Source: a candidate division TM6 bacterium GW2011_GWE2_36_25 (GTDB lineage: Bacteria; Babelota; Babeliae; Babelales; UBA12409). From it: a stretch of DNA of 64,000 bases. The DNA lies in contig LBRU01000001.1 in the NCBI GenBank assembly GCA_000991575.1, positions 8,462-72,461 of the forward strand. The letters are read 5' to 3'. The position numbers were made by a program, and so were the translations under genes. Positions 7,574-19,858 of this stretch are shown here, one piece after another (position 1 is the stretch's first letter; the number at the start of each line of letters is the position of its first letter). Below the pieces are notes generated by a model that was not told where the DNA came from, ran no database searches, and saw nothing but the letters and a program-made list of their open reading frames with translations.

Positions 7574-9277
7574 TTAAATCTTGTGTCCCTTAAATAAAAT
7601 GTATTCTACCCCAAATTTATCAGTAATCTTAATCAGAAACATATTTTCAATAATTGTATATTCTTCCGATGAAGACATCGCCTTCTTTTCATCTTCTTCA
7701 ATTAAAACTTCTTCAGGTTGCTCCAAAAATGGCCTTCCCTTATCTATTGCTTCTTTTAAATCTTGTTCATTCTTATCATGAAAAAAGCGATGAATCACTG
7801 TCTGCGTTTCCTTATTGTAAGCAATTGCAAAATATCCTATGAGCATTTCTTCCCCCGGAATCTTAATTGCACCAGGAAAATTAAGCACGCGATAGTCTCT
7901 ACCTTTTTTATGATAATCATTTTCAATAGCTAAATGTCTAAATTCCTGCTCAATGCAAAAAGGAAGACGGTGACGAATAATAGTCTCTTTTTTTGGCAAT
8001 AATGATTTGGGGTTTGCCGGATCACAATATCCTTGGCGCTTAAAAGCTTCCTCCTCATCATTATGCCAATCTAATACGCGAAAATCATAATCTTGAAAAA
8101 TAGGCTCAGAACGAGGAAAATCAAAGTTCAAATTAAATTCATCTGATTCACTTGCAATGGAAATTGAAGATAGATCCTCGCATAAAACATTTTCTGCATC
8201 ATCCTTTTCTGATTCCTCTTTAAACACTAAACTCTTTTTTTTGCCCTTCTTTTTGCGAGAATATCTTTTCTTCTTACCAATTTTAGTAATCTTTTCAGTT
8301 TTTTCGATGCAAGATTCTTCTTTTTCTATTTTTTCATGAGGAATCTTTTTATCAGGATCTTCAAAAGATAATAAATGGGATAGTAAATCTTCTCCTTTAA
8401 AAAACCAGCTTTTGCGTTTTTCTGGATTATCTTGAGTTAATCTAGAAAATTTTTCTATCGATGATTCATAAAGTTTATCAAATTTTGGTTTCAAATCTTT
8501 ATAAAACTTAACCAGCCTGTCACAGGCTGATGCATATTTGTCTTCCGAAAATACGTTATGAACCACTCCCTCTTTAAGTCGAGAAATATCCATCAATATG
8601 AAATAAGCACACGCAGGATAACAGTATTCTCTTATACAATCAATCAGACTGTTCATATCAACTTCAGGCATCATTGAAAACAATCTTACTGCTTCCTCCT
8701 TATATTCATCCGCTAAATCTTTATAACAGTCCGTCTTTTTTATATATAAAGCTGCCTGCAACTGTTTATCAGCAACTCTGCTAATTAAAAAATCTAGCAA
8801 TCGTATTCGTTGTACAATGCTTAAATTCTTTCTGTCGGCATTTTCTAATATAAGATTAATACTTTTTAATTCAGGAGAATCTTTAATATCAACTTCATAA
8901 GAATAATCTCCATCGCTATCACGCCGCTTGCTCAACCATGAAAAATGTTTATTAAAAAAATCAACCAGTCGCAAATTTTCTTGTACCGCCCATCTAAGAG
9001 ACGCTACTGAAACAATCAATCGATCCTGCCAAGCAAGAAAGTTCGCTATAAGATGCAATCTACCTACATAAGAATCGAAAGTTTCTCGATGAAGCTTTTT
9101 TATCTCCAAATCAGGCAACTCTTCTTTTTGTCGTCGATCTGAATCCCATTTTGCTTTTTTTCCCTTAATAGAAGATTCGCAATGATTTACAGCTTCTTCC
9201 CATGTAAGTTGCTTTTTCATCGAATTACAAGAAAAAATAAGCCCTAAAATAAAAATAAATGAACATAATTTCTTCAC
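7574..9277 (-). CDS. Hypothetical secreted protein with a Lys/Arg-rich NLS-like tract
   Basis: Likely start is GTG at 9277 after GGAGG (the ORF track extends to 9337). Leader MKKLCSFIFILGLIFSCNS. Internal KIGKKKRYSRKKKGKKKS. Confidence 0.8.
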   Translation of the reverse strand: MKKLCSFIFILGLIFSCNSMKKQLTWEEAVNHCESSIKGKKAKWDSDRRQKEELPDLEIKKLHRETFDSYVGRLHLIANFLAWQDRLIVSVASLRWAVQENLRLVDFFNKHFSWLSKRRDSDGDYSYEVDIKDSPELKSINLILENADRKNLSIVQRIRLLDFLISRVADKQLQAALYIKKTDCYKDLADEYKEEAVRLFSMMPEVDMNSLIDCIREYCYPACAYFILMDISRLKEGVVHNVFSEDKYASACDRLVKFYKDLKPKFDKLYESSIEKFSRLTQDNPEKRKSWFFKGEDLLSHLLSFEDPDKKIPHEKIEKEESCIEKTEKITKIGKKKRYSRKKKGKKKSLVFKEESEKDDAENVLCEDLSSISIASESDEFNLNFDFPRSEPIFQDYDFRVLDWHNDEEEAFKRQGYCDPANPKSLLPKKETIIRHRLPFCIEQEFRHLAIENDYHKKGRDYRVLNFPGAIKIPGEEMLIGYFAIAYNKETQTVIHRFFHDKNEQDLKEAIDKGRPFLEQPEEVLIEEDEKKAMSSSEEYTIIENMFLIKITDKFGVEYILFKGHKI

Positions 9278-9326
9278 AATTAATCCTCCAAAAATTTCAT
9301 AAAAATTAAAAAAACACTTATTAAAG

Positions 9327-10886
9327 TTATTTTTCACACTTTATATATACAACGTTTTGGACCAAATATTCTTTCAAGGCTTTTATTAAACTTTCAGCAC
9401 AAAGCTTTGATTGATAAATCACATCCAACAACCAATCGGTTTTCACAGCAAAACCAAACCCTTCAATCTTTTTTTCGCGATCTCTATCACACGTATAACA
9501 GGTGCGACCATGAAATAGTTCACCTACTCCCAATAAAAATGCTTGCAATGCATTACAAGGAGGAATAAAAAAAAGTTTATTACCACTCACAATACTGTCG
9601 CGATAAAATTTTTTATCTATTTTTATTGCAAATCCAAAGGGAGCACTTGCTATAAATTCTCCCGCAACAGCACCTGGCATATTTATTTCACCGTCCTCAG
9701 CAAAATAACTTCTATCGTTATTTGCGCCACCTAATAAATATCCAAAACAATAAGAAAATTTCTTTACATGCTTTTTCGTAAGTTTTTCCTTTTCGCCTAC
9801 GATAACATACTTTTTTTCCGAACCACGATACATAAAATAATCATTGGGATTATCTCTTTCATTTAAAATTGCATTTACTAAAAATTGATCAGCAAATCGT
9901 GAAAAAAGATTATCTAAAACAAATCCTACTTCTTCAAAACATGTATGTTTCACATCATGTCCAATTAAAAATTGATGTGCTGAAATAAATAACTTTAACT
10001 CAGATAAAAGCTGATTAATCAAATCAATGGCTGGCCAACGCAATTGCGCATAAAGCGGTATTAAATCATTATTAAGTGCGCGCGAAAAACATATAAGAGA
10101 ATCAGAAAAGAGTGTTTCATTAAAATTTTTAAAAAAATCATGCCAAATCAACGTACAATTTTCATCCGAAGGATAAGTTTCTCTTATATCTCGTTTACAA
10201 AAGAAAAAATCACTCATCTCATAAAATTCACCATCAAAAGCTTTAAACAAGCGGTGTTTTTTTAAAAAGATAGCCAGTTCTTTTTTATCAAATAAACTTG
10301 GAAAATCAATATAACTTATAACATGTCGAACCAATTCAGATGGCAAGTTCAATAAAGGAAGTACCCTTTTTATCTTTTCATGCTGATCGAGCCAAGTATC
10401 TAATTTTTCACGCATAAAATCACACAAAAATCCATCATCCTCCATCGTTGATGTATCACTATCTACACAAATAGCAGCGTGAGATGTCTGAAAAGCAAAT
10501 ATGTGTCTTCTATCAAAAAAACCCCTTTTTATTAATTTACCCAAATGGGCTATCACTATTTGTTGCATACTCAGTTTTGCTGCATACAACTCGCATAATG
10601 TTGTCGGAATAAAGGATAAAATATAATTTGCTCCTAATCGCTCCTGAATTTTACCTTGAATAAAAGATTGTTCATCACTATCTAACTGAATCTTTTCATC
10701 TTCCGAAATATGGTCATTATACACATACATCGGAAAACGGTAGGTATTAATAATTTCATAAGCATGCTTAAACTCATCACAAGATAATAAACAAGCCTTT
10801 TCCCCTTCTTGACGCCAAACAATATATTCAGCAGATAAGAAAGTAGGAATAAAAAACACTAAAAAAAGCAATAAAAAATTTTTCAC
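9327..10886 (-). CDS. Hypothetical secreted protein with an internal F-box-like motif
   Basis: GGAGG then GTG start. Signal peptide MKNFLLLFLVFFIPTFLSA. Motif LLNLPSELVRHVISYIDF. Confidence 0.8.
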   Translation of the reverse strand: MKNFLLLFLVFFIPTFLSAEYIVWRQEGEKACLLSCDEFKHAYEIINTYRFPMYVYNDHISEDEKIQLDSDEQSFIQGKIQERLGANYILSFIPTTLCELYAAKLSMQQIVIAHLGKLIKRGFFDRRHIFAFQTSHAAICVDSDTSTMEDDGFLCDFMREKLDTWLDQHEKIKRVLPLLNLPSELVRHVISYIDFPSLFDKKELAIFLKKHRLFKAFDGEFYEMSDFFFCKRDIRETYPSDENCTLIWHDFFKNFNETLFSDSLICFSRALNNDLIPLYAQLRWPAIDLINQLLSELKLFISAHQFLIGHDVKHTCFEEVGFVLDNLFSRFADQFLVNAILNERDNPNDYFMYRGSEKKYVIVGEKEKLTKKHVKKFSYCFGYLLGGANNDRSYFAEDGEINMPGAVAGEFIASAPFGFAIKIDKKFYRDSIVSGNKLFFIPPCNALQAFLLGVGELFHGRTCYTCDRDREKKIEGFGFAVKTDWLLDVIYQSKLCAESLIKALKEYLVQNVVYIKCEK

Positions 10887-11086: not shown

Positions 11087-11743
11087 ATGAAAGTTTTTCT
11101 CGATACGGCTGATATGAAAATGATAAAAAAGTATGTTCAGCTTGGCATTATCGATGGTGTAACAACAAACCCAACACATTTATCCAAAGAAAAAGAAAAG
11201 CCAGAAAAAATCATAAAAGAATTAGTTAAAATAGTTCCTGGCGATATTAGTGTTGAAATAACGGAAAAAAGCGCTGATAAAGTTTATCTACAAGCTCAAA
11301 AAATCTCAAAAATAGCTAAAAATATTGTTGTTAAAATTCCTTGTCATGCAGATTATTACGAAATTATTAAAAAGTTAGTTAAAGAAAAAATTCAAATCAA
11401 TATCACTCTCGTTTTTTCCCTCGCACAAGCACTTTTTATGTGCAAGCTCGGCGTAAAATATATTTCTCCTTTTATCGGAAGACTTGATGATATTGGCGCA
11501 GATGGCACGCAACTTCTTTATGAAATTCGTGACATGATTGATAACTATGGTTATTCTACACAAATTATCGCCGCATCGATCAGATCAATTGATCGATTTA
11601 ATGAAGCAATTATGGCTATTGCCGATGTTGCAACAATTCCTAGTGATGTATTTGAAAAATCACTTCAACATCCATTAACAGATAGTGGTATGGAAAAATT
11701 TTTATCCGATTGGAAAAAAACTGGCATCAAGCAATTTCCATAA
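11087..11743 (+). CDS. tal: Transaldolase / fructose-6-phosphate aldolase family
   Basis: FLDTAD, GVTTNPT, VVKIP (Schiff-base Lys), NITLVFS, SPFIGRLDD and AASIR; 218 aa. Confidence 0.92.
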   Translation: MKVFLDTADMKMIKKYVQLGIIDGVTTNPTHLSKEKEKPEKIIKELVKIVPGDISVEITEKSADKVYLQAQKISKIAKNIVVKIPCHADYYEIIKKLVKEKIQINITLVFSLAQALFMCKLGVKYISPFIGRLDDIGADGTQLLYEIRDMIDNYGYSTQIIAASIRSIDRFNEAIMAIADVATIPSDVFEKSLQHPLTDSGMEKFLSDWKKTGIKQFP

Positions 11744-11765
11744 AGCAATCAAAATAATTTAAATG

Positions 11766-11800
11766 AAAAAGAGAGAACCGGGTTTGATTCTCTCTTTTTT
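11766..11800. terminator. Bidirectional intrinsic terminator
   Basis: AAAAAGAGAGAA...TTCTCTCTTTTTT between convergent genes. Confidence 0.8.
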
Positions 11801-11819
11801 TAAACAATATTTTATTATC

Positions 11820-12677
11820 TTATCCAGCCGATTGAGCCTTTTTAAAACGCATTTGCAATTCTTCTATAAAATTTTTTGGCTTACCCTCTAAGATGCTCCG
11901 TTCATCTTCAAGTTTTCCTTTTAAAATATTATAACTTGCCTCTGAAATCTTTTTTTGTTCGAAACGTGATTCTAATTTTTCTAAATCTTTTTTAATATCG
12001 TCTAATTCGCGCTCTTCCTTTTCCTTAACAACGCGCTCCTTCAGCTTCACTCCCTTTTTAAGCTCAGCAATCAATTGATCGCTCGCTTTTTGGGATTGAA
12101 CCATCTGATCAATATCGGTACCCCCAAGACGCTCCGCTCTTTGCTGCGCTGCTTGTTGTAATGCACTTAAATCAAGAGCTGCACCCCCAGCCAAACCTTT
12201 TGTAACAGGAGGAAGAGGTGGTGGTGGCGGTGGTGGCGGCGGAACTGAAGCACCACTCGCAGTTTTTAAGGCTTTAATTTGATCTCCATAAATCTTAATA
12301 TCTTGTTGATACGCTTCACTTTGTTTTTGTATTTTCCCTCTTTCTTCTTCGCGTTGCACCAAAACATCAGCTAACATTGCTAAATTTTCATCCGACCCCA
12401 ACTGGACACGATCAAGCGCAACAGAAGACATATCTGCTAAGACCTCTAGATCTAATTTTGCTTTTTCTAGTTGATTTGATGTATCTTCCAAGACTTGTTT
12501 AGCCATAGCAACAATTTTGTCTCTCTCGGCTAAATCGATATTATTCCATTTAAAGATTCCCCGAGGAATATTAATTCTTCTGTCAGCAAACAATTCAATG
12601 AGATTATTAATGCTATTTGGCTGTTGCTGCGCACAAAGGGAACCAAATAAAATGGAAAAAGAAAAAATATTTTTCAT
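11820..12677 (-). CDS. Secreted polyproline + WH2-motif protein (candidate actin-binding effector)
   Basis: AAGGAG RBS, signal-like leader, coiled coil, P9LPP tract, then DQLIAELKKGVKLKERV matching the WH2 helix+LKKV pattern. Confidence 0.8.
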   Translation of the reverse strand: MKNIFSFSILFGSLCAQQQPNSINNLIELFADRRINIPRGIFKWNNIDLAERDKIVAMAKQVLEDTSNQLEKAKLDLEVLADMSSVALDRVQLGSDENLAMLADVLVQREEERGKIQKQSEAYQQDIKIYGDQIKALKTASGASVPPPPPPPPPLPPVTKGLAGGAALDLSALQQAAQQRAERLGGTDIDQMVQSQKASDQLIAELKKGVKLKERVVKEKEERELDDIKKDLEKLESRFEQKKISEASYNILKGKLEDERSILEGKPKNFIEELQMRFKKAQSAG

Positions 12678-12747
12678 AAATACTCCTTCGCCTCTTTTTT
12701 GACTTTAATAAAAAAGAAAATTCAAAAACAAGAATTTTAAAAAAAAA

Positions 12748-12783
12748 CTAAAAAGAGAGAATCAGTGAACCCTCTCTTTTTAG
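12748..12783 (-). terminator. Intrinsic terminator of the beta-barrel-like gene
   Basis: CTAAAAAGAGAG...CTCTCTTTTTAG stem followed by a T-run on the minus strand. Confidence 0.7.
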
Positions 12784-12799
12784 AAAATTGTCTGTTTAA

Positions 12800-14398
12800 T
12801 TAAATAGAGACGCCAAACTTAAACCAAATAGTCCAACGACGAACAGAAGTATTATCATTCGTAAATTCATATGATGCGCCACCATTGATAAATGTTGGAA
12901 ACTTTAAATCTCGCCACTCATAACCAAGTGCTGCATAAATAGTTTGAGAAATGCATGCTGGTGATGCACCTGAATTTGGATTTAAATCATCAACAGTGAT
13001 TGGAATAAATGTTGTATATGCATTAACGCCATTTGGATTTATCACCTCATCAACATATCGAGCAACATTTGGTTTAAGAATTTCATTTTCAATGGTGCAC
13101 CCTTGATAGGTACGAGGAACAGCGTCATTGCCACTCAAATACTCATGCAACGCCAATAAGCCAACTTCCCCATTCATTGGACGATCAAAGCGGATTTCTT
13201 CGGCTTTTCGAGCATAAAAATTATACCCGGCTTCTGCATGAAAACCACGATCTCGATAATCAAAAGCTATATTAAAATCATATGAGTATAATGGCTGAAC
13301 TTGCACACATAACGTAGTATAATTAATTAGATAATCAAGATGAGAATTTAAATCAGCAATCGCTAAATTTTGGCCATCATTATCATTTTTCCAAACTTTT
13401 AAATAACGGCTCCATGGCTTACCTTTAAGATCAAATGAACGTCGCTGATGATTTGGTGCAAAATAACGCGTTAATGCATGGTAATAGGTTGTGAACGTAC
13501 GATCTCTATCATCACGCAGTAATTCAACCTTGCCGTAACCACCAAGCATAAATGCCCAATGACCATTATTTCCTACAACCGGTTCAAACATATAATAAGC
13601 TAAAGGTTTGTTGCCACAAGGAATATAAAGGCCAACAAAGCCACCAAAGGGATTAATGTCACCTTCAGAAATTTCACGCCCAACACGCAATTCGATGTGC
13701 GATAACCGCGTTTTTTTCATTTCACGACTTACAATGCGACCATATTTTAAATTGGCATTACAATCACCGAGCGCACACAATGCGTTAGCAAAATACCCAT
13801 TGGGAACATCAACATTACCACCAACACCACCACCTTTGTTGTAAATATATTCTTTTACGCCTAAAAGATTTTTTATGCTTTGAATCGGAGCTGCGATATC
13901 CCACCAAAAGCGTTTAGGCAGCCGCTGTTGATAAGCAAGCCCAATGCCCATAACTGTTTGACGTGGACAAAATGCAACCTTACTTTCAAAAGTTAAATTG
14001 GTGTATCCAGCAGTTTCTGCTGCTTGATATGTTGTAGGGCTTAAAACATCATCAGTCAAAACACCTAAGTGAAAAGCATTTATATCACGCGTTCTACTAA
14101 CCGCAGACTGTGACGCATCTTCACCAACCGTTATATAATCTTTACCGTTAGGTAAGAAATATTTCGCTATTTCAGTTGGACTTACTGTTCTACCAAAAAA
14201 AGCGGCTGCTTGAAATGCGCCACCTTTACCATCTTTGCGATCATCACATCTTCCTCTGAACATAACTAAACGTTCAGGAAAATTAAGCTCAAAACGAGGA
14301 CGAATAGTAAGATAAGAACGACTATAAACATCTGCATGAATTGCAGAATGAGCCAACAAGGCAACTACGAGTAAATATCGTTTTTTTATGCTCATCAA
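12800..14398 (-). CDS. Putative outer-membrane beta-barrel protein
   Basis: Signal peptide ending in AIHA, alternating amphipathic strands, and C-terminal WTIWFKFGVSI resembling a BAM beta-signal. Confidence 0.65.
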   Translation of the reverse strand: MMSIKKRYLLVVALLAHSAIHADVYSRSYLTIRPRFELNFPERLVMFRGRCDDRKDGKGGAFQAAAFFGRTVSPTEIAKYFLPNGKDYITVGEDASQSAVSRTRDINAFHLGVLTDDVLSPTTYQAAETAGYTNLTFESKVAFCPRQTVMGIGLAYQQRLPKRFWWDIAAPIQSIKNLLGVKEYIYNKGGGVGGNVDVPNGYFANALCALGDCNANLKYGRIVSREMKKTRLSHIELRVGREISEGDINPFGGFVGLYIPCGNKPLAYYMFEPVVGNNGHWAFMLGGYGKVELLRDDRDRTFTTYYHALTRYFAPNHQRRSFDLKGKPWSRYLKVWKNDNDGQNLAIADLNSHLDYLINYTTLCVQVQPLYSYDFNIAFDYRDRGFHAEAGYNFYARKAEEIRFDRPMNGEVGLLALHEYLSGNDAVPRTYQGCTIENEILKPNVARYVDEVINPNGVNAYTTFIPITVDDLNPNSGASPACISQTIYAALGYEWRDLKFPTFINGGASYEFTNDNTSVRRWTIWFKFGVSI

Positions 14399-14518: not shown

Positions 14519-17500
14519 TTAACTTTTATAAATTGGACATATGATATTTGTATTTAATTTTGAAAGTTCTTGTTCAATCTGATTTAAAAGGATAATTGCA
14601 TTACCACGCTCAACTTCATTGCCGAGAATATGCAATGTATCTATTTTATTGAGAATAGCTTCAATTCTATGCAGCCTTTGGCAAACCTCTTGAGCCTGCT
14701 CACTTATAACCTGCCAACGAAATGCTTCTTTGTCTTTGATGCCAGACATACGTCGTCCAAAAACCATGCAATGACTTACGAAAGGCTTAAATTTAGACTT
14801 TATTGTATCTTTAATTTGATCAATTCGATCAAGCTGAATCTTTTTCGGTAATTTTCCACTTTTTGCCAATAAATATAATTCCTTGAGATAAGAATTAATA
14901 AGCTCTCTTAAATCTCGAGGTAATTCACAAATAAATTTTCGTGCAACCTCAAAGTCTTCACGAGATGTCAAAAGATCATCTCCAATCTCCAGGCGGCCAA
15001 GTTTCAATCTTTGCGTATAAACATCTTTTTCATCTGTTAATACATAATTTTCAAAACGAGCCCGCAACACCTTATAAAGATCTTTTGGTGCTTTTAATTC
15101 TGGGGAAGCAAGTAAAAGTTTTTTAAGATACACATCTTTGCTTGCTAAACGTTCATCGCTTAAAAGATCACGCAGTAGATTAACCAGATGATTGGCATAG
15201 TTATTTGCATAAACCACCATGTCTTTTCCAAGATCCGAACCTGAAAATTCACAAGCAAAACGACTTTTCATTTCATTAATATTCTTTATGATTTGCATTA
15301 ATGATAAGAGTCGGTCATATTTTTCACCTTCTGATGCATCAAAGTATTGATTAATCCATTCGCTCAATAATTTTCTTTGATCAAACAAACGAGCAAGAAG
15401 ATCATTGAGTTGTTCTTCAAATAATTTACCAGCAGAACATCTAATTTCCGCATTCAATAACAATTTAAGTTGCTCTTTACGCTCAAGAGGACGCTCCGGC
15501 TCTACTTCTTGTGGTTCTTCAATCGCACGAGAAACTTCTGTTTCTTTTTTCACCCCTTCTTCAGCTGGTTCTTCTTTAACTTCCGGTGAAATCACTTCCT
15601 TTACCGCAGGTTCTTTTCTCATTTCTTCAAGCAATTCTTCCATCTGTTGCGCCTCAACTTGTTGTTCTAAAAGACTTGTTAATTTATCTGTCAATGAAAT
15701 TCGCTCTTTTTCACTGCTTTCAAGTTTACTTTCTAACTCTTTAGCGAACTCTTTCTCTTTCTTTTCTATTTCGCTACACCTTCTAAAATTCTTCAATAAT
15801 CGGTTATATTCGCTTTTTATTTCATTCTTCTCTTTTATGCAATCTTCTAATTTAAGATTAATTTGGCTTAATTCATCATTGACCTTGCCTAAATCGCTTT
15901 CTCTTTCCTGAAGCGTAAGAGTTATTGTCTCCAATTGCTTTTCAGCCGAAGCAATTTTATGTGTTAAATCTTCAATGCTATTTTTACTCGTCCCTTTTAT
16001 ATCAGTAAGCTCTTTTTCTAATTGCGCAATCCTTTGATTTCGTTCTTCAATTTGGCTTACATCACGATCATGAATGCGCTCCAACCTATCAGCACGCTCT
16101 ATTTTATCTCTCAATTTAGTATTTTCAGTGGCAAGATCGCTGATTTGCTGATTCAATTCTTCTCGTATCTTAAGCCACTGCTGCTTTTCTTCTCTTGTAT
16201 TAAAACTCTTTATTTCGTGCTCAAGAACCCGTGCATAATCTTCATAACTTCTGATCTTAATATCAGGATATTTTTCTTGATACGTTGCGCCCAAAATATC
16301 TTTCAATAACGAACCCATCTTTCCTTGAAAACCATCTATTTGCTCTTTTAATGTTTTATTCTCTTTTTCTAAAATTCGGAGAGCTTCTTCAGATTTTTGA
16401 GCATTTTCTTTTTCTTTAACCATCATCTCTTGTAATAGTGCCTGAGACTTACTGCTCTTTTGCTGAACATTCTTTTGTTCTACAATTTCTTTCTGCAAAC
16501 GATTCTGCTCTGCTCGCGATGCAACCAGTTCACTTTGTGCAACATCCAACTGCTGTCGCAATCCAGTCATTTCTTGTTCCATTGCGCGAGATACATTCTT
16601 GATTTCATCAACTGTTCTCTGAGTTAGATTAAGCTCTCTTTCAACAAGTTGCGCGGCTTCCTCTCTTCGTTTAATATCTTCTCGCGCACTTTCCATTTCA
16701 TTTCTTAATAACTCGAGTTGCTGATCCTTGCCCTCTAATTGGTCTTGTAATCCTCGCATATCGGTTCTTAAATCAACTTGTGCGCTTTCAAGGGTTTCGC
16801 GACTCGTTTTTAATGCATCTCGTTCTTCTTGAATTTTCCGCAACTCATTCGCCATATCTTCAAGTCGTTTTTCTTGATCTCTTGTTTGAATCGTTAATAA
16901 ACCAATTGAATCACGTGCCCCATCCCGTTCTTGCTGCATATTTTGCAATGCCGATTCCAATTCACGAACTTTTTGTTCAGTCACTTCTCGAAGCTGAACT
17001 TGACTTTCTTTTTCTTCACTCAGGTTTTTCATCTGTTGCGATAATTGGTCAAAACTTTGTTGCAACTCATTATAAGCACTTTCTTTCTCTCCAAATTCTC
17101 GTTTCAGTTTTTGTAATTCTTCGATCTTTTGTGCAATCTTCCCTTGTGCACTTTCTTCAACCGCTGATAACTCTTTTGAAGATGTTACTTCGTTATCTCT
17201 TAACTGTTGAGAAAGTCTTTCAATTTCATCATTCAGCTCCCTAACCCGTGCAACTTGCACCTCAAGCTGAGCTTGCATTTCATTTTCCACTGCCTTTTGA
17301 GCTTGATCAACTGCCATTACACGTTCACGCTCTGCAGTTTCTTGATATTTCTCTAAATTCTTTTTAACCTGATCACGCTCTCTTTCAACCTGTACAGCTA
17401 CTTCACTTAATCGCCCAATCTCAGCTTTCAATTCTTTTTCAACAGATTCTCGTCCTTGTTTTTGCTCACGTATTTGTTCTTGAAGCTGTTCTAATAAACC

Positions 17501-19858
17501 TTTTTGACTTTCTATTTCTCGAACCGCAGCACTGGCTCTTGCCTCATTCTCATCTTTCTCTTTTTGAGCGCGGGCTAACTCTAAACGTAATTTTTCAATA
17601 CCACCTTTTAAATCAATGCGTTCAATAATTTCTCGTTCTCTTTCTTGTTGCATCTTAGTTTTTTCTTCTTTTTCTGCTTGCAATTGGGCACTTAATGATT
17701 CAAGTTGTTCTTGCAATTCTTTTTCTCTTCTTTCTTTTTCCTGCCGCGCAACTTCAATCTCTTTGCTTACTTCAACTTCTCTTGCTTGAATTTCTTCACG
17801 CACTCTTCTATTTTCTTCGCGAATTTTTTCCAGTTCTGTTTGTAATCCTTCTTGTTGATCAGTTGCTGATGCTAATAATTCTTCTTGTTCTTCACTTTTC
17901 CTCTCTGATTGTTCGCGACTGAGCTCTACTTCTCTTTCTAATCTCTGAATCTGATTCCTTAATTTTTCTTTTTCCGCTTCATCTTTTCGTGTTTGCTCTT
18001 CCAGCTCTCCTCGTACAATTTTTAACGCTCTCTCTTGTTCTTGTTCTCTTTGCGTTTTCTCCAATTGCATTTCTGTTTGTTGCGCCAACGATCGTTCAAG
18101 CTCACGAACTCTTTGTTCAGTAACTTCTCGAAGCTGCGCTTGACTTTCTTTCTCTTCACTCAATTTCTTGATTTGTTGTGATAATTGGTCAAAACTCTGT
18201 TGCAGTTTATTATAAGCACTTTCTTTTTCAGCAACTTCTCGCTCTCTTTTTTGCAACTCTTCGTTCTTTTGTTCAAGTTTCTTTCGCGCACTTTCTTCAA
18301 CCGCTGATAATTCTTTTGAAGATGTTACCTCTTTATCTCTTAACTCTTTCGAAAGCTGTTCAATTTCAGCATTCAATTCTTTAACTTGTGCAACTTGCAG
18401 CTCAAGCTGAGCCTGCATTCTGCTTTCTATTGCTCTTTGTGCTTGCTCAACCGTCATTACTCGTTCACGCTCTGCCTCTTGCCTATATTCACTTTCAGCC
18501 TGCACTCTTTCTCGTTGTATTCTCACTTTTTCTTCTTTTTCTGCTTGCAATTGGGCACTTAATGATTCAAGTTGTTCTTGCAATTCCTTTTCTCTTCTTT
18601 CTTTTTCCTTCCGCGCAACTTCAATCTCTTTGCTTACTTCAACTTCTCTTGCTTGAATTTCTTCGCGCATCCTTCTATTTTCTTCGCGAATTTTTTCCAG
18701 TTCTGTTTGTAATCTTTGTTGTTGATCAGTTGCTGATGCCAATAATTCTTCTTGCTCTTCACGTACCGTTATTAATGCCTCTTGCTGCTCAGTTGTCTCT
18801 CTTTGAGCCTGCTCACGAGTTTTTGCAAGCTCTTGTTCACGCGCTCTAATATTTTTTTCTAATCCCTGAATTTGCTCTTGCAGCGTCCCTCTTTCTGTTG
18901 TCGCTTTTCTCGATTGTTCCTCTAATTGGTTTCTCAATTGACCTTCTAATGTTGCTTGTCGTTCTCTTTCTTGCGCAACCTGCTGTTGTCCTCTTGCGCT
19001 TTCCTCGCGGACTCTTTCTAATGTTTCTTGTAATACTCGCCTTTCTTCACGAGCAGTCTCCAATTCACTCTCTCGTTCTCGCGTACTCGCTTCTATTTGT
19101 GTTTGTAATGCACTTAATTGTCCTCTTAATTGTGTCTCTAATGCACCTTGCCGTTCTCGCTCTTGTGCAACTCTTTCCTGTTCTCTCAATCTTTCATCTC
19201 GAATTCTATTCAACTCTTCTTGTAGGGTTCGCCCTTCTTCACGTGCTACCCGCAAGGCTTCTTGTTGTTCTGTTGCCTCTCTTTGAGCCTGCTCACGTGT
19301 CTTTGCAAGTTCTTGTTCAAATAATAATTGTTGACGGCGAGTTTCATCTTCTCTTCTCTGAAGCTCATCTTGCCGTTGACGTTCAGCCTCTTGTTCCGCC
19401 TCTAAGGCTTCACGAAGCTGAGATACATCAATACCCTCTTCTTCAGCAAGCTCTTCCGGCTCCTCTTCTTCCGCCTCTTCAGCTTCTTCCGCCTCTTCAG
19501 CTTCTTCCGCCAACCGAGCTTGATCTTGCGCTCTTTGAACAGCCTCTTTTTCAGCCAATATCTTATTTTTTTCAGCAAGACTCTTTTCAGCTTTAACCAA
19601 AAGCGATGTTGGATTACGCAATGTTGCTTGAAGAGCAACAGGTTTCAACGCAGCGCGACGCCATTGACTGTAATCAGTTAAATCTTTTATTTCAGCGCGC
19701 AATGTTTCAATGTTTTCAGCGTGCTTTCTTTCAACAATGAGAGGAATTTCACGACTCAATCGATCCATCTCACCTTTAGATAATGCAAGAACATTAATTA
19801 CAGAGAAAAAAATTGAAATAAATAATAAATATTTATGCCGTAAAAATTTCATGCTCAA
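14519..19858 (-). CDS. Giant secreted coiled-coil protein (1779 aa) with internal duplications
   Basis: Long uninterrupted ORF with hydrophobic leader ending INVLA, E/Q/R/K-rich heptads over about 1300 aa, and a globular C-terminus. Confidence 0.85.
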   Translation of the reverse strand: MSMKFLRHKYLLFISIFFSVINVLALSKGEMDRLSREIPLIVERKHAENIETLRAEIKDLTDYSQWRRAALKPVALQATLRNPTSLLVKAEKSLAEKNKILAEKEAVQRAQDQARLAEEAEEAEEAEEAEEEEPEELAEEEGIDVSQLREALEAEQEAERQRQDELQRREDETRRQQLLFEQELAKTREQAQREATEQQEALRVAREEGRTLQEELNRIRDERLREQERVAQERERQGALETQLRGQLSALQTQIEASTRERESELETAREERRVLQETLERVREESARGQQQVAQERERQATLEGQLRNQLEEQSRKATTERGTLQEQIQGLEKNIRAREQELAKTREQAQRETTEQQEALITVREEQEELLASATDQQQRLQTELEKIREENRRMREEIQAREVEVSKEIEVARKEKERREKELQEQLESLSAQLQAEKEEKVRIQRERVQAESEYRQEAERERVMTVEQAQRAIESRMQAQLELQVAQVKELNAEIEQLSKELRDKEVTSSKELSAVEESARKKLEQKNEELQKREREVAEKESAYNKLQQSFDQLSQQIKKLSEEKESQAQLREVTEQRVRELERSLAQQTEMQLEKTQREQEQERALKIVRGELEEQTRKDEAEKEKLRNQIQRLEREVELSREQSERKSEEQEELLASATDQQEGLQTELEKIREENRRVREEIQAREVEVSKEIEVARQEKERREKELQEQLESLSAQLQAEKEEKTKMQQEREREIIERIDLKGGIEKLRLELARAQKEKDENEARASAAVREIESQKGLLEQLQEQIREQKQGRESVEKELKAEIGRLSEVAVQVERERDQVKKNLEKYQETAERERVMAVDQAQKAVENEMQAQLEVQVARVRELNDEIERLSQQLRDNEVTSSKELSAVEESAQGKIAQKIEELQKLKREFGEKESAYNELQQSFDQLSQQMKNLSEEKESQVQLREVTEQKVRELESALQNMQQERDGARDSIGLLTIQTRDQEKRLEDMANELRKIQEERDALKTSRETLESAQVDLRTDMRGLQDQLEGKDQQLELLRNEMESAREDIKRREEAAQLVERELNLTQRTVDEIKNVSRAMEQEMTGLRQQLDVAQSELVASRAEQNRLQKEIVEQKNVQQKSSKSQALLQEMMVKEKENAQKSEEALRILEKENKTLKEQIDGFQGKMGSLLKDILGATYQEKYPDIKIRSYEDYARVLEHEIKSFNTREEKQQWLKIREELNQQISDLATENTKLRDKIERADRLERIHDRDVSQIEERNQRIAQLEKELTDIKGTSKNSIEDLTHKIASAEKQLETITLTLQERESDLGKVNDELSQINLKLEDCIKEKNEIKSEYNRLLKNFRRCSEIEKKEKEFAKELESKLESSEKERISLTDKLTSLLEQQVEAQQMEELLEEMRKEPAVKEVISPEVKEEPAEEGVKKETEVSRAIEEPQEVEPERPLERKEQLKLLLNAEIRCSAGKLFEEQLNDLLARLFDQRKLLSEWINQYFDASEGEKYDRLLSLMQIIKNINEMKSRFACEFSGSDLGKDMVVYANNYANHLVNLLRDLLSDERLASKDVYLKKLLLASPELKAPKDLYKVLRARFENYVLTDEKDVYTQRLKLGRLEIGDDLLTSREDFEVARKFICELPRDLRELINSYLKELYLLAKSGKLPKKIQLDRIDQIKDTIKSKFKPFVSHCMVFGRRMSGIKDKEAFRWQVISEQAQEVCQRLHRIEAILNKIDTLHILGNEVERGNAIILLNQIEQELSKLNTNIICPIYKS
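16960..18760. repeat. Intragenic direct duplications: A about 17660-17893 / 18527-18760 (offset 867); B about 16960-17335 / 18100-18475 (offset 1140)
   Basis: Near-identical segments EEQEELLASATDQQ...QLQAEKEEK (twice) and AERERVM...LREVTEQ.VRELE (twice), also visible at DNA level. Confidence 0.9.
19466..19511. repeat. 18-bp tandem repeat, 2.5 copies (encodes AEEAEE)
   Basis: TTCTTCCGCCTCTTCAGC repeated in tandem. Confidence 0.9.

Follow-up and report, generated by a model that had tools for sequence, protein, structure and literature searches.

Does a small exported protein of a protist-parasite lineage act on the actin of its host? The Dependentiae are a widespread and nearly uncultured phylum of protist parasites, and to our knowledge their host-manipulation proteins are essentially uncharacterised. 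Bacterial mimics of the WH2 motif are well known from other phyla. In the window analysed here, a stretch of 64,000 nucleotides from a Dependentiae genome, one gene encodes a fast-evolving protein, P0001, in which a secretion leader, a polyproline tract and a WH2-like segment follow one another, and a sequence-only reading proposed that it is a WASP/VASP-like actin effector. The layout of the protein, its retention in an orthologue, WH2-like matches in the PDB and the lifestyle of the bacterium speak for this proposal; the Pfam WH2 model, the significance of the PDB matches and the predicted shape of the motif do not. On balance, we give even chances to the view that P0001 is a Sec-exported host-interaction protein of an obligate protist parasite, a mimic of actin-assembly factors in the manner of BimA, Ena/VASP or TarP, without being a member of those families. 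Searches of the literature on Dependentiae with actin, cytoskeleton or effectors found no paper that brings Dependentiae and WH2 together.

The source genome and protein export

The P0001 gene (11820-12677, minus strand) is an intact open frame encoding 285 amino acids, its coordinates including the stop codon, and the identical protein occurs once in the source genome (G000). This genome (1,070,204 bases in 17 contigs, 94.6% complete) carries TLC ATP/ADP translocases, three secretins and two ATPases of the T2SS/T4P type, and a search of it for VirB4 found none. It is a genome of the parasite type and belongs to an order of the Dependentiae.

A Sec leader provides delivery as far as the periplasm only. 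Of the coding sequences of C. destructans, a cultured member of the Dependentiae, 44% have signal peptides; its putative effectors depend on Sec, and vesicles bud off and are released in the food vacuole (PMC6561590). It is therefore normal for Dependentiae that a host-directed protein carries a Sec leader.

Layout of P0001

The order of features that had been described in P0001 was confirmed: a leader, helices, PPPPPPPPPLPP, DQLIAELKKGVKLKERV, further helices and NFIEELQMRFKK. The protein begins with a Sec-type leader, MKNIFSFSILFGSLCA (aa 1-16; 12630-12677, minus strand), which consists of MK, a hydrophobic core and ...LCA and is followed by QQQ; across aa 1-17, its mean Kyte-Doolittle hydropathy is 1.3-1.8. 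Such leaders were taken to have a basic n-region, a hydrophobic core of ~10-15 amino acids and a small residue at -1, for which P0001 has MK, NIFSFSILFGSL and CA, with QQQ after the putative cleavage site. Leaders are also present in P0004, a fragmentary relative, and in a 153-aa paralogue of the G002 genome, and comparable ones occur in relatives.

The leader is followed by the best-conserved part of the family, the N-terminal motif INIPRGIFKWNNIDL (aa 35-49; 12531-12575, minus strand). Its invariant columns in alignment A2 are N36, I37, P38, G40, K43, W44, N45, I47, D48 and L49, and this segment is the part of P0001 that matches G002 (E 1.3e-4). Two long helices are then predicted by AF2 (aa 52-91 and 96-140; 12258-12524, minus strand; pLDDT 42-68). 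This region, which has 52% identity in P0004, is possibly devoted to oligomerisation or anchoring.

The polyproline tract PPPPPPPPPLPP (9xPro-L-PP) was mapped to aa 146-157 (12207-12242, minus strand), exactly where it had been placed. It is encoded by CCG, CCA and CCT codons in a genome of 36% GC, and we infer that it is a ligand of profilin or of SH3/EVH1-type domains. The WH2 consensus consists of an amphipathic helix with hydrophobic residues at i, i+1 and i+4, a turn containing Gly, and L-K/R-K-V/T, all at fixed spacing. Both the WH2 helix and LKKV are named in a figure legend of PMC9569871 (Fig. 3). On actin, a WH2 occupies the cleft between subdomains 1 and 3. The WH2-like motif of P0001, DQLIAELKKGVKLKERV (aa 200-216, minus strand), has hydrophobics at i, i+1 and i+4, a Gly and L-K at the canonical spacing; it lies in the place proposed for it, its ends mapping to 12030-12080 rather than to 12027-12083. 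L201, I202, L205, G208, V209, L211 and K212 fit the consensus, and the last two residues are E-R, so that the motif terminates in LKER rather than in K-V/T and has an acidic residue at a position that is usually basic in WH2.

The remainder of the protein is a helical region (aa 216-283; 11829-12032, minus strand), the best modelled by AF2 and a candidate oligomerisation hairpin or coiled coil, and it includes the terminal amphipathic helix NFIEELQMRFKK (aa 269-280; 11838-11873, minus strand). As for the two coiled coils proposed on either side of the motif, AF2 does predict helices there; the coiled-coil character itself gained less, a crude heptad score being modest (0.5-0.6). The reported absence of an acidic, Trp-containing Arp2/3 tail was correct. 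P0001 ends in ...KKAQSAG, its sole Trp is W44, nothing acidic is encoded past the stop in any frame, and the acidic Trp stretch of a WASP-family VCA is absent from the C-terminus and from all frames past the stop.

WH2 likeness of the motif

Among the 2384 six-frame open reading frames of at least 60 amino acids in the genome, three contain a run of at least five Pro and 18 a loose WH2 pattern, and P0001 alone has both. The two other frames with a Pro run, of 60 and 87 amino acids, are apparently spurious, which leaves P0001 as the sole real gene with such a run. The WH2 pattern turned up in 0.54% of 40000 composition-preserving shuffles of the 128 amino acids past the Pro run, and in 0.29% if it had to lie within 60 amino acids; these figures and the counts of open reading frames are indicative only, since the pattern was composed from the WH2 consensus after the sequence had been seen. 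By these figures, the joint occurrence of the two features in P0001 is beyond chance.

A search with the Pfam WH2 model (PF02205), the first check proposed for the motif, was negative at every level. There was no match to the whole protein at E<=1, to a 37-aa segment of P0001 at E<=10, or to the genome translated in six frames at E<=10, in which seven candidates were scored; P0001 does not reach the curated cut-off of the model, 23.1 bits. The model is insensitive, as it also misses P0007, a protein described below, despite its obvious ...QLKQGVPLKKA motif (LLSQLKQGVPLKKA). At the locus of the orthologue the model matched no motif, and its weak matches elsewhere are noise. One weak match in the relatives was discarded, as it falls in the gene of HsdS, a type I restriction S subunit.

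We then compared the segments with structures, using phmmer against 177635 distinct PDB sequences at E<=10. A 23-aa query holding the motif had three matches, the top two being Spire DDD (E 0.13) and the tandem WH2 of N-WASP (E 0.57), both of which are WH2 constructs co-crystallised with actin. The 37-aa query also had three, with N-WASP first and Spire DDD third. The WH2 likeness is specific to the flagged motif, since none of the four matches of the control segments is a WH2: aa 216-244 found the FosW coiled coil (best) and a polymerase subunit, and aa 100-128 a designed helical repeat and the geminin coiled coil. None of the E-values of the WH2-like segments (0.13-1.6) is significant, and the unrelated matches of the control segments have comparable ones, among them 0.47, 0.13 and 0.00029. 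That values of this size arise easily is illustrated by a 69-aa query from the orthologue P0002, which matched antibody light chains only (E 0.05-0.95). As the motif segments were picked by eye, these searches show likeness, not homology or function. The whole of P0001 found nothing relevant in the PDB, and aa 162-190, considered as a second WH2, had no PDB match and was rejected as such.

Predicted structure

The AF2 model of P0001, built from a three-sequence alignment, has a mean pLDDT of 57 and a pTM of 0.25. It is helical throughout except for aa 141-169, with helices at aa 52-91, 96-140, 188-240 and 246-283. The last two pair with each other, with a pLDDT of 74-86 over aa 211-260, and in the model this pairing would fit a C-terminal oligomerisation hairpin. 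At the WH2-like motif, AF2 predicts, with low confidence, one continuous helix (aa 188-240; pLDDT ~52-64 over aa 191-210) and not the shape of a WH2, in which a short helix leads into an extended segment amid flexible surroundings. The ESM Atlas gave no usable feature match, and the structural neighbours found there were generic helices.

Orthologue and relatives of P0001

No Pfam or NCBIfam family matched P0001 at cut-off, and its sub-threshold rows (VIR_N, DUF745, Mito_fiss_reg, PRIMA1) were set aside as low-complexity noise. A word-index homologue search with P0001 returned nothing, and one with alignment A2 returned only the variant of the orthologue and the self fragment. With phmmer, P0001 had five matches at E<=0.001 among 1.84 billion representatives. 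Two of them belong to its own family, namely the self fragment and P0004, an N-terminal fragment of a relative (136 aa, 52% identical over aa 9-118). The third is a 674-aa repeat protein aligned only to aa 124-152, the residues that lead up to and into the polyproline. P0006 and P0007, the remaining matches, are proteins with polyproline, WH2 and an acidic tail, and they align across aa 114-240 of P0001. P0006 passes the Pfam WH2 model (30.3 bits), and aa 183-240 of P0001 match the WH2 region of P0007 with a BLASTP pairwise E of 7e-6. A word-index search with P0006 returned P0006 only and thus gave no basis for an independent WH2 profile; a scan of viral contigs with P0007 found nothing.

When 61 genomes, those of relatives and G000, were searched with P0001 at E<=1, ten had a match, G000 included, and only that of G002 was below 0.001; the remaining ones were dismissed as polyproline or charged-helix noise. 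The protein of G002, a genome of the same genus, is P0002 (394 aa), a syntenic orthologue ~30% identical to P0001, whose gene lies directly downstream of a porin orthologue that is 76% identical. P0002 keeps a leader-like sequence, the N-terminal motif in the form VNIPVGVVKWNGIDL, the helices, a run of 13 Pro and two WH2-like segments. Each of these segments has a single PDB match: for LMSDLSNGKGLQKTLRKT it is the WIP WH2 peptide 2a41_C (E 0.62) and for AEQLLKGLKSGRDKKV Spire DDD (E 1.6). A metagenome scan gave a single locus, on the independent contig L055; it holds the same gene as P0002, from the same species as G002, with 10 Pro.

The best WH2-like segment occupies different alignment positions in P0001 and P0002, and aa 162-190 of P0001 align with the good motif of P0002. 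The Pro run and the WH2-like segments are retained at ~30% identity. The evidence from conservation is thin, since the family is tiny and was found in one genus only.

Another protein of interest, P0008, is encoded in G005, a genome of the same GTDB family and another genus. It bears a leader and has 572 amino acids and three Pro tracts, including PPPPPPPLPP. Its segment FAEQLKQKVETGGGLKPV has Spire DDD as its only PDB match (E 1.3), and its C-terminus (...TFTEILAEKFKGAHGEPEEETWED) is a helix followed by EEETWED. The last helix of P0001 had been suggested as a second actin-binding element, for which we found nothing beyond a weak match to the helix KTFTEILAEKFKGAH, which in P0008 comes just before the acidic Trp tail (7 of 15 residues identical, pairwise E 1.2). 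P0008 was also considered, and rejected, as a link to a larger family: at E<=0.01 it matches 12 of 201 genomes (G000 and G005 included) through Pro-rich and coiled-coil parts, and its C-terminal third is matched nowhere in those genomes except in one frame with two stops.

Other possible roles of P0001

The strongest competitor, which we nevertheless regard as fairly unlikely, is a structural helical protein of the envelope or surface, periplasm-spanning or outer-membrane-associated, in which the proline tract would be a rigid spacer and the WH2-like string a chance product of a Lys/Glu/Leu-rich helix; P0001 would be one of a set of variable exported helical proteins encoded beside the porin-like gene. 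The gene does lie directly downstream of that for a 532-aa outer-membrane-type, porin-like protein (12800-14398, minus strand). When the best orthologue of this gene in each genome of the same family (G002-G007) was located, four of the six regions (G002, G003, G005 and G007) were found to hold leader-bearing helical proteins with neither a Pro run nor a WH2-like motif; in G001, the contig ends 529 bases downstream, and these bases contain no such gene. The helix that AF2 draws through the motif and the negative Pfam WH2 result favour such a role as well, and the neighbours of the Atlas model include clusters of TonB/TolA type and OmpA/MotB type, all of them under the naming bar. However, spacers of TonB/TolA type alternate Pro-Glu or Pro-Lys, and P0001 has nine uninterrupted Pro; moreover, neither TonB_C, TolA, OmpA nor any other envelope domain was found with Pfam and NCBIfam. 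A chance origin of the string also sits poorly with the uniqueness in the genome, and rarity in shuffles, of the Pro run joined to a WH2-type pattern, with the presence of both elements in the diverged orthologue, and with WH2 matches in the PDB that come from the motif segments only.

It is less probable still that P0001 is an adaptor that binds host proteins (profilin, SH3, WW or EVH1) through its proline tract alone, the WH2-like motif playing no part in actin binding. The Pro run is the most strictly retained low-complexity feature, with 9, 10 and 13 Pro in three lineages. DNA patterns able to encode proline runs occur in 105 of the 201 genomes of the order, in frames many of which may not be genes; 16 of the 30 loci fetched have six or more Pro, in 19 open frames in total. 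Several leader-bearing proteins of the order have repeats like those of formin FH1 without a WH2-type pattern, which matches none of the 19 frames, and these proteins agree with an adaptor role. Such a role, however, leaves unexplained why WH2-type segments recur 30-50 amino acids past the Pro run in P0001, P0002 and P0008.

Well-known monomer-sequestering peptides are short and have neither a polyproline tract nor long flanking helices. That P0001 binds actin monomers and sequesters them or caps filament ends like beta-thymosin, the helix after LK reaching along the monomer, is the least probable alternative: HMMER aligned LKERVVKEKE in the 37-aa query with LKKTETQEKN of the N-WASP construct 3m3n_W, and there is one well-formed WH2 per chain with oligomerisation as a proposal only, but an upstream polyproline tract with long helices on either side is the layout of assembly factors (PMC9569871).

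Comparison with known actin-assembly factors

The view of P0001 as an actin-assembly mimic can be set against systems of known function. BimA of Burkholderia pseudomallei is, like P0001, Sec-exported and has a proline-rich region, then WH2-like motifs, and a C-terminal helical or coiled-coil region, and it depends on oligomerisation of its coiled coil to nucleate and elongate actin filaments (PMC9569871). However, BimA is an outer-membrane-anchored trimeric autotransporter with two to three WH2 motifs; P0001 is much shorter and has one good WH2-like motif. A C-terminal anchor of the YadA-like BimA type was not found in P0001 with Pfam and NCBIfam, and as no Pfam family matched, there was no sign of an autotransporter domain; the protein ends in a charged, soluble helix. 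Homology searches revealed no sequence similarity to BimA, and the likeness of the two proteins rests on descriptions.

Ena/VASP proteins have a proline-rich region, then a G-actin-binding WH2-like site and a C-terminal helical region for oligomerisation, and P0001 has candidate counterparts of these in the same order. For the coiled coil of the Ena/VASP tetramer, P0001 shows a predicted hairpin (aa 188-283, pLDDT up to 86), in which aa 216-244 are nearest to FosW. P0001 differs in being bacterial and leader-bearing and in having no EVH1 domain or recognisable F-actin-binding site, as no Pfam family matched.

TarP of Chlamydia, large and mostly disordered, is a substrate of type III secretion and is not known to have a Sec leader, whereas P0001 is of Sec type, small and mostly helical. 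Both have one WH2-like helix and a proline-rich region, and TarP nucleates by oligomerisation (PMC9569871 and PMC10381072). VopL and VopF of Vibrio combine a proline-rich region and WH2 motifs, which the Pro run and WH2-like motif of P0001 resemble in layout, with a dimerising C-terminal domain; unlike P0001, they have three tandem canonical WH2, the VCD fold and type III delivery (PMC9569871 and PMC9674292). MavH and RavH of Legionella, a pathogen of amoebae, have short WH2-like helices that are recognised by their hydrophobic pattern and not by Pfam, as in P0001; in MavH there is one such domain (PMC10381072 and PMC13481308). Both are delivered by Dot/Icm type IV secretion and depend on a PI(3)P-binding domain and on a membrane; P0001 has neither, and VirB4 was not found in its genome.

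With the WH2 of WASP, WAVE and WIP, P0001 has in common the spacing L-hydrophobic-x-x-hydrophobic-x-x-G-x-x-L-K and an upstream polyproline tract. It differs from them in falling below any Pfam score, in its LKER end and in having neither an acidic Trp tail nor an Arp2/3-binding signature. A formin FH2 domain after the proline-rich part was not found with Pfam. By the tests run, P0001 belongs neither to Pfam WH2, WASP-VCA and Ena/VASP nor to the formins and autotransporters.

A possible mode of action and its implications

If P0001 is an actin-assembly mimic, its leader would carry it over the inner membrane, and the host side might be reached through secretin-type export, in outer-membrane vesicles or by exposure at the cell surface. 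The 9xPro-L-PP tract could recruit profilin-actin or host proteins with SH3/EVH1-type domains, and the amphipathic helix L201-I202-x-x-L205 would, with G208 and L211-K212, occupy the barbed-face cleft of an actin monomer in the fashion of a WH2. The flanking helices may gather several copies of P0001, and an oligomer with one good WH2 per chain would then nucleate or elongate filaments. A protein with a single WH2 could do so if its flanking helices assemble several copies, as in Ena/VASP, BimA and TarP. That a proline-rich region, WH2 motifs and oligomerisation work together in this way is established in the case of BimA, TarP, VopL and Ena/VASP (PMC9569871 and PMC10381072).

A wider proposal, which we advance tentatively and consider somewhat doubtful, is that Dependentiae independently evolved minimal Sec-exported mimics, an oligomer of Ena/VASP or TarP type in P0001 and P0002 and a fuller WASP-like form, with a C-terminal helix and an acidic Trp tail, in P0008. 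With these mimics, needing neither type III nor type IV secretion, they would remodel or ride protist actin, possibly from vesicles or from their own surface.

Should P0001 act on actin, it would provide the first concrete and cheaply testable host target for Dependentiae and add one more bacterial lineage to those with WH2-type mimicry of independent origin. One would then have to ask by what path a Sec substrate gets to host actin when there is no injection system. P0001 looks soluble, is small and is easily expressed, and actin assays are standard. Should the actin reading fail, the case would be a caution on WH2 motifs in Lys/Glu/Leu-rich helices.

Organization of the locus

On the minus strand, a Shine-Dalgarno-like AGGAG (12683-12687), read from the sequence, lies 5 nt upstream of the ATG of P0001. 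A terminator-like hairpin of 16 pairs with a T-run (12748-12783, minus strand) occupies the gap to the upstream porin-like gene. Past the P0001 stop lies another terminator-like hairpin (11766-11799, minus strand), with a nearly identical stem; it faces a convergent transaldolase gene (11087-11743, plus strand; Pfam TAL_FSA, E 5e-47). As such hairpins flank it on both sides, the P0001 gene is monocistronic. Genome-wide, the stem AAAGAGAG...CTCTCTTT occurs only in these two hairpins that flank P0001.

Genomic setting of the P0001 gene

The interval 3' of the porin-like gene, which in the window (11743-12800) holds the gene for P0001, the leader-bearing polyproline and WH2-like candidate protein, varies among genomes, as seen on comparison with loci L009, L010, L012, L013 and L014. 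It contains one gene in the genome of origin (G000); G002 has five there, G003 and G007 have three apiece, and G005 has at least two. In G006 it contains no gene and one shared hairpin. Every product encoded in this interval is leader-bearing and helical, and their sequences are unrelated. The transaldolase gene forms the distal limit of the interval in G000, G002, G006 and G007.

The P0001 gene is flanked by two hairpins (window 12748-12783 and 11766-11799) with nearly identical stems, AAAAAGAGAG.../...CTCTCTTTTT. This stem pattern occurs in only two copies in genome G000, both of them flanking the P0001 gene, and the twin stems may be a trace of the arrival of this gene between its convergent neighbours.

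The leader of P0002, the syntenic orthologue of P0001, is split: an ATG frame (MEKVKIKFF...) enters a run of seven T, and the hydrophobic core resumes in the +1 frame. The arrangement is identical in two independent assemblies, G002 (L002:1431-1476, on G002:C6) and the metagenome contig L055 (2025-2070). This leader may be slippage-dependent, phase-variable or decaying.

The porin-like gene itself (window 12800-14398, minus strand) encodes a leader-bearing outer-membrane-type protein of 532 aa, for which searches of Pfam and NCBIfam returned no family. Its paralogues make up a large family with members in 60 of the 61 related genomes, frequently arrayed in tandem. A further leader-bearing protein of 519 aa (9327-10886, minus strand) gave an F-box match below the Pfam threshold (E 0.022, 15.1 bits versus a cut-off of 20.5) and may be another eukaryote-like host-interaction protein. 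For two large minus-strand ORFs, of 1779 aa (14519-19858) and 587 aa (7574-9337), no Pfam family was found at E<=0.01.

Proline-run proteins in the order

The second candidate, P0008 (572 aa; L007:529-2247, on G005:C14), carries a leader, helices and three polyproline tracts, together with WH2-like segments; at its C-terminus an amphipathic helix precedes EEETWED. By this layout, P0008 looks like a fuller mimic of the WASP-type V-C-A organization. Residues 1-159 are duplicated in a 98%-identical copy that starts directly after P0008, at G005:C14:73687, and lies at the contig end. The sole other match in G000 to the proline-rich part of P0008 was G000:C6:1-330, where the contig begins within an (Ala-Pro)n repeat that is followed by a coiled-coil tail.

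DNA patterns able to encode proline runs were present in 105 of the 201 genomes of the order. Several leader-bearing proteins of the order carry repeated tracts resembling formin FH1 (e.g. PPPPPLPPVPG and PPPLPGVGG); proline-tract loci were obtained by the polyproline pattern scan (L099, L103, L118, L119 and L122) or by the P0008 search (L025, in G092). None of the 19 proline-run frames examined matched the WH2 pattern.

Actin-like ORFs in bacterial assemblies

Conventional actin was 82-87% identical to ORFs of long contigs from bacterial MAGs. The actin-like ORF is full-length in L077, a 243-kb Polyangiaceae contig, and in L073, and the frame is only partial in L058, a 121-kb cyanobacterial contig; the set also includes L082, from a Rickettsiales MAG, where the contig is 8.8 kb long. 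Either gene transfer or binning contamination could account for these ORFs.
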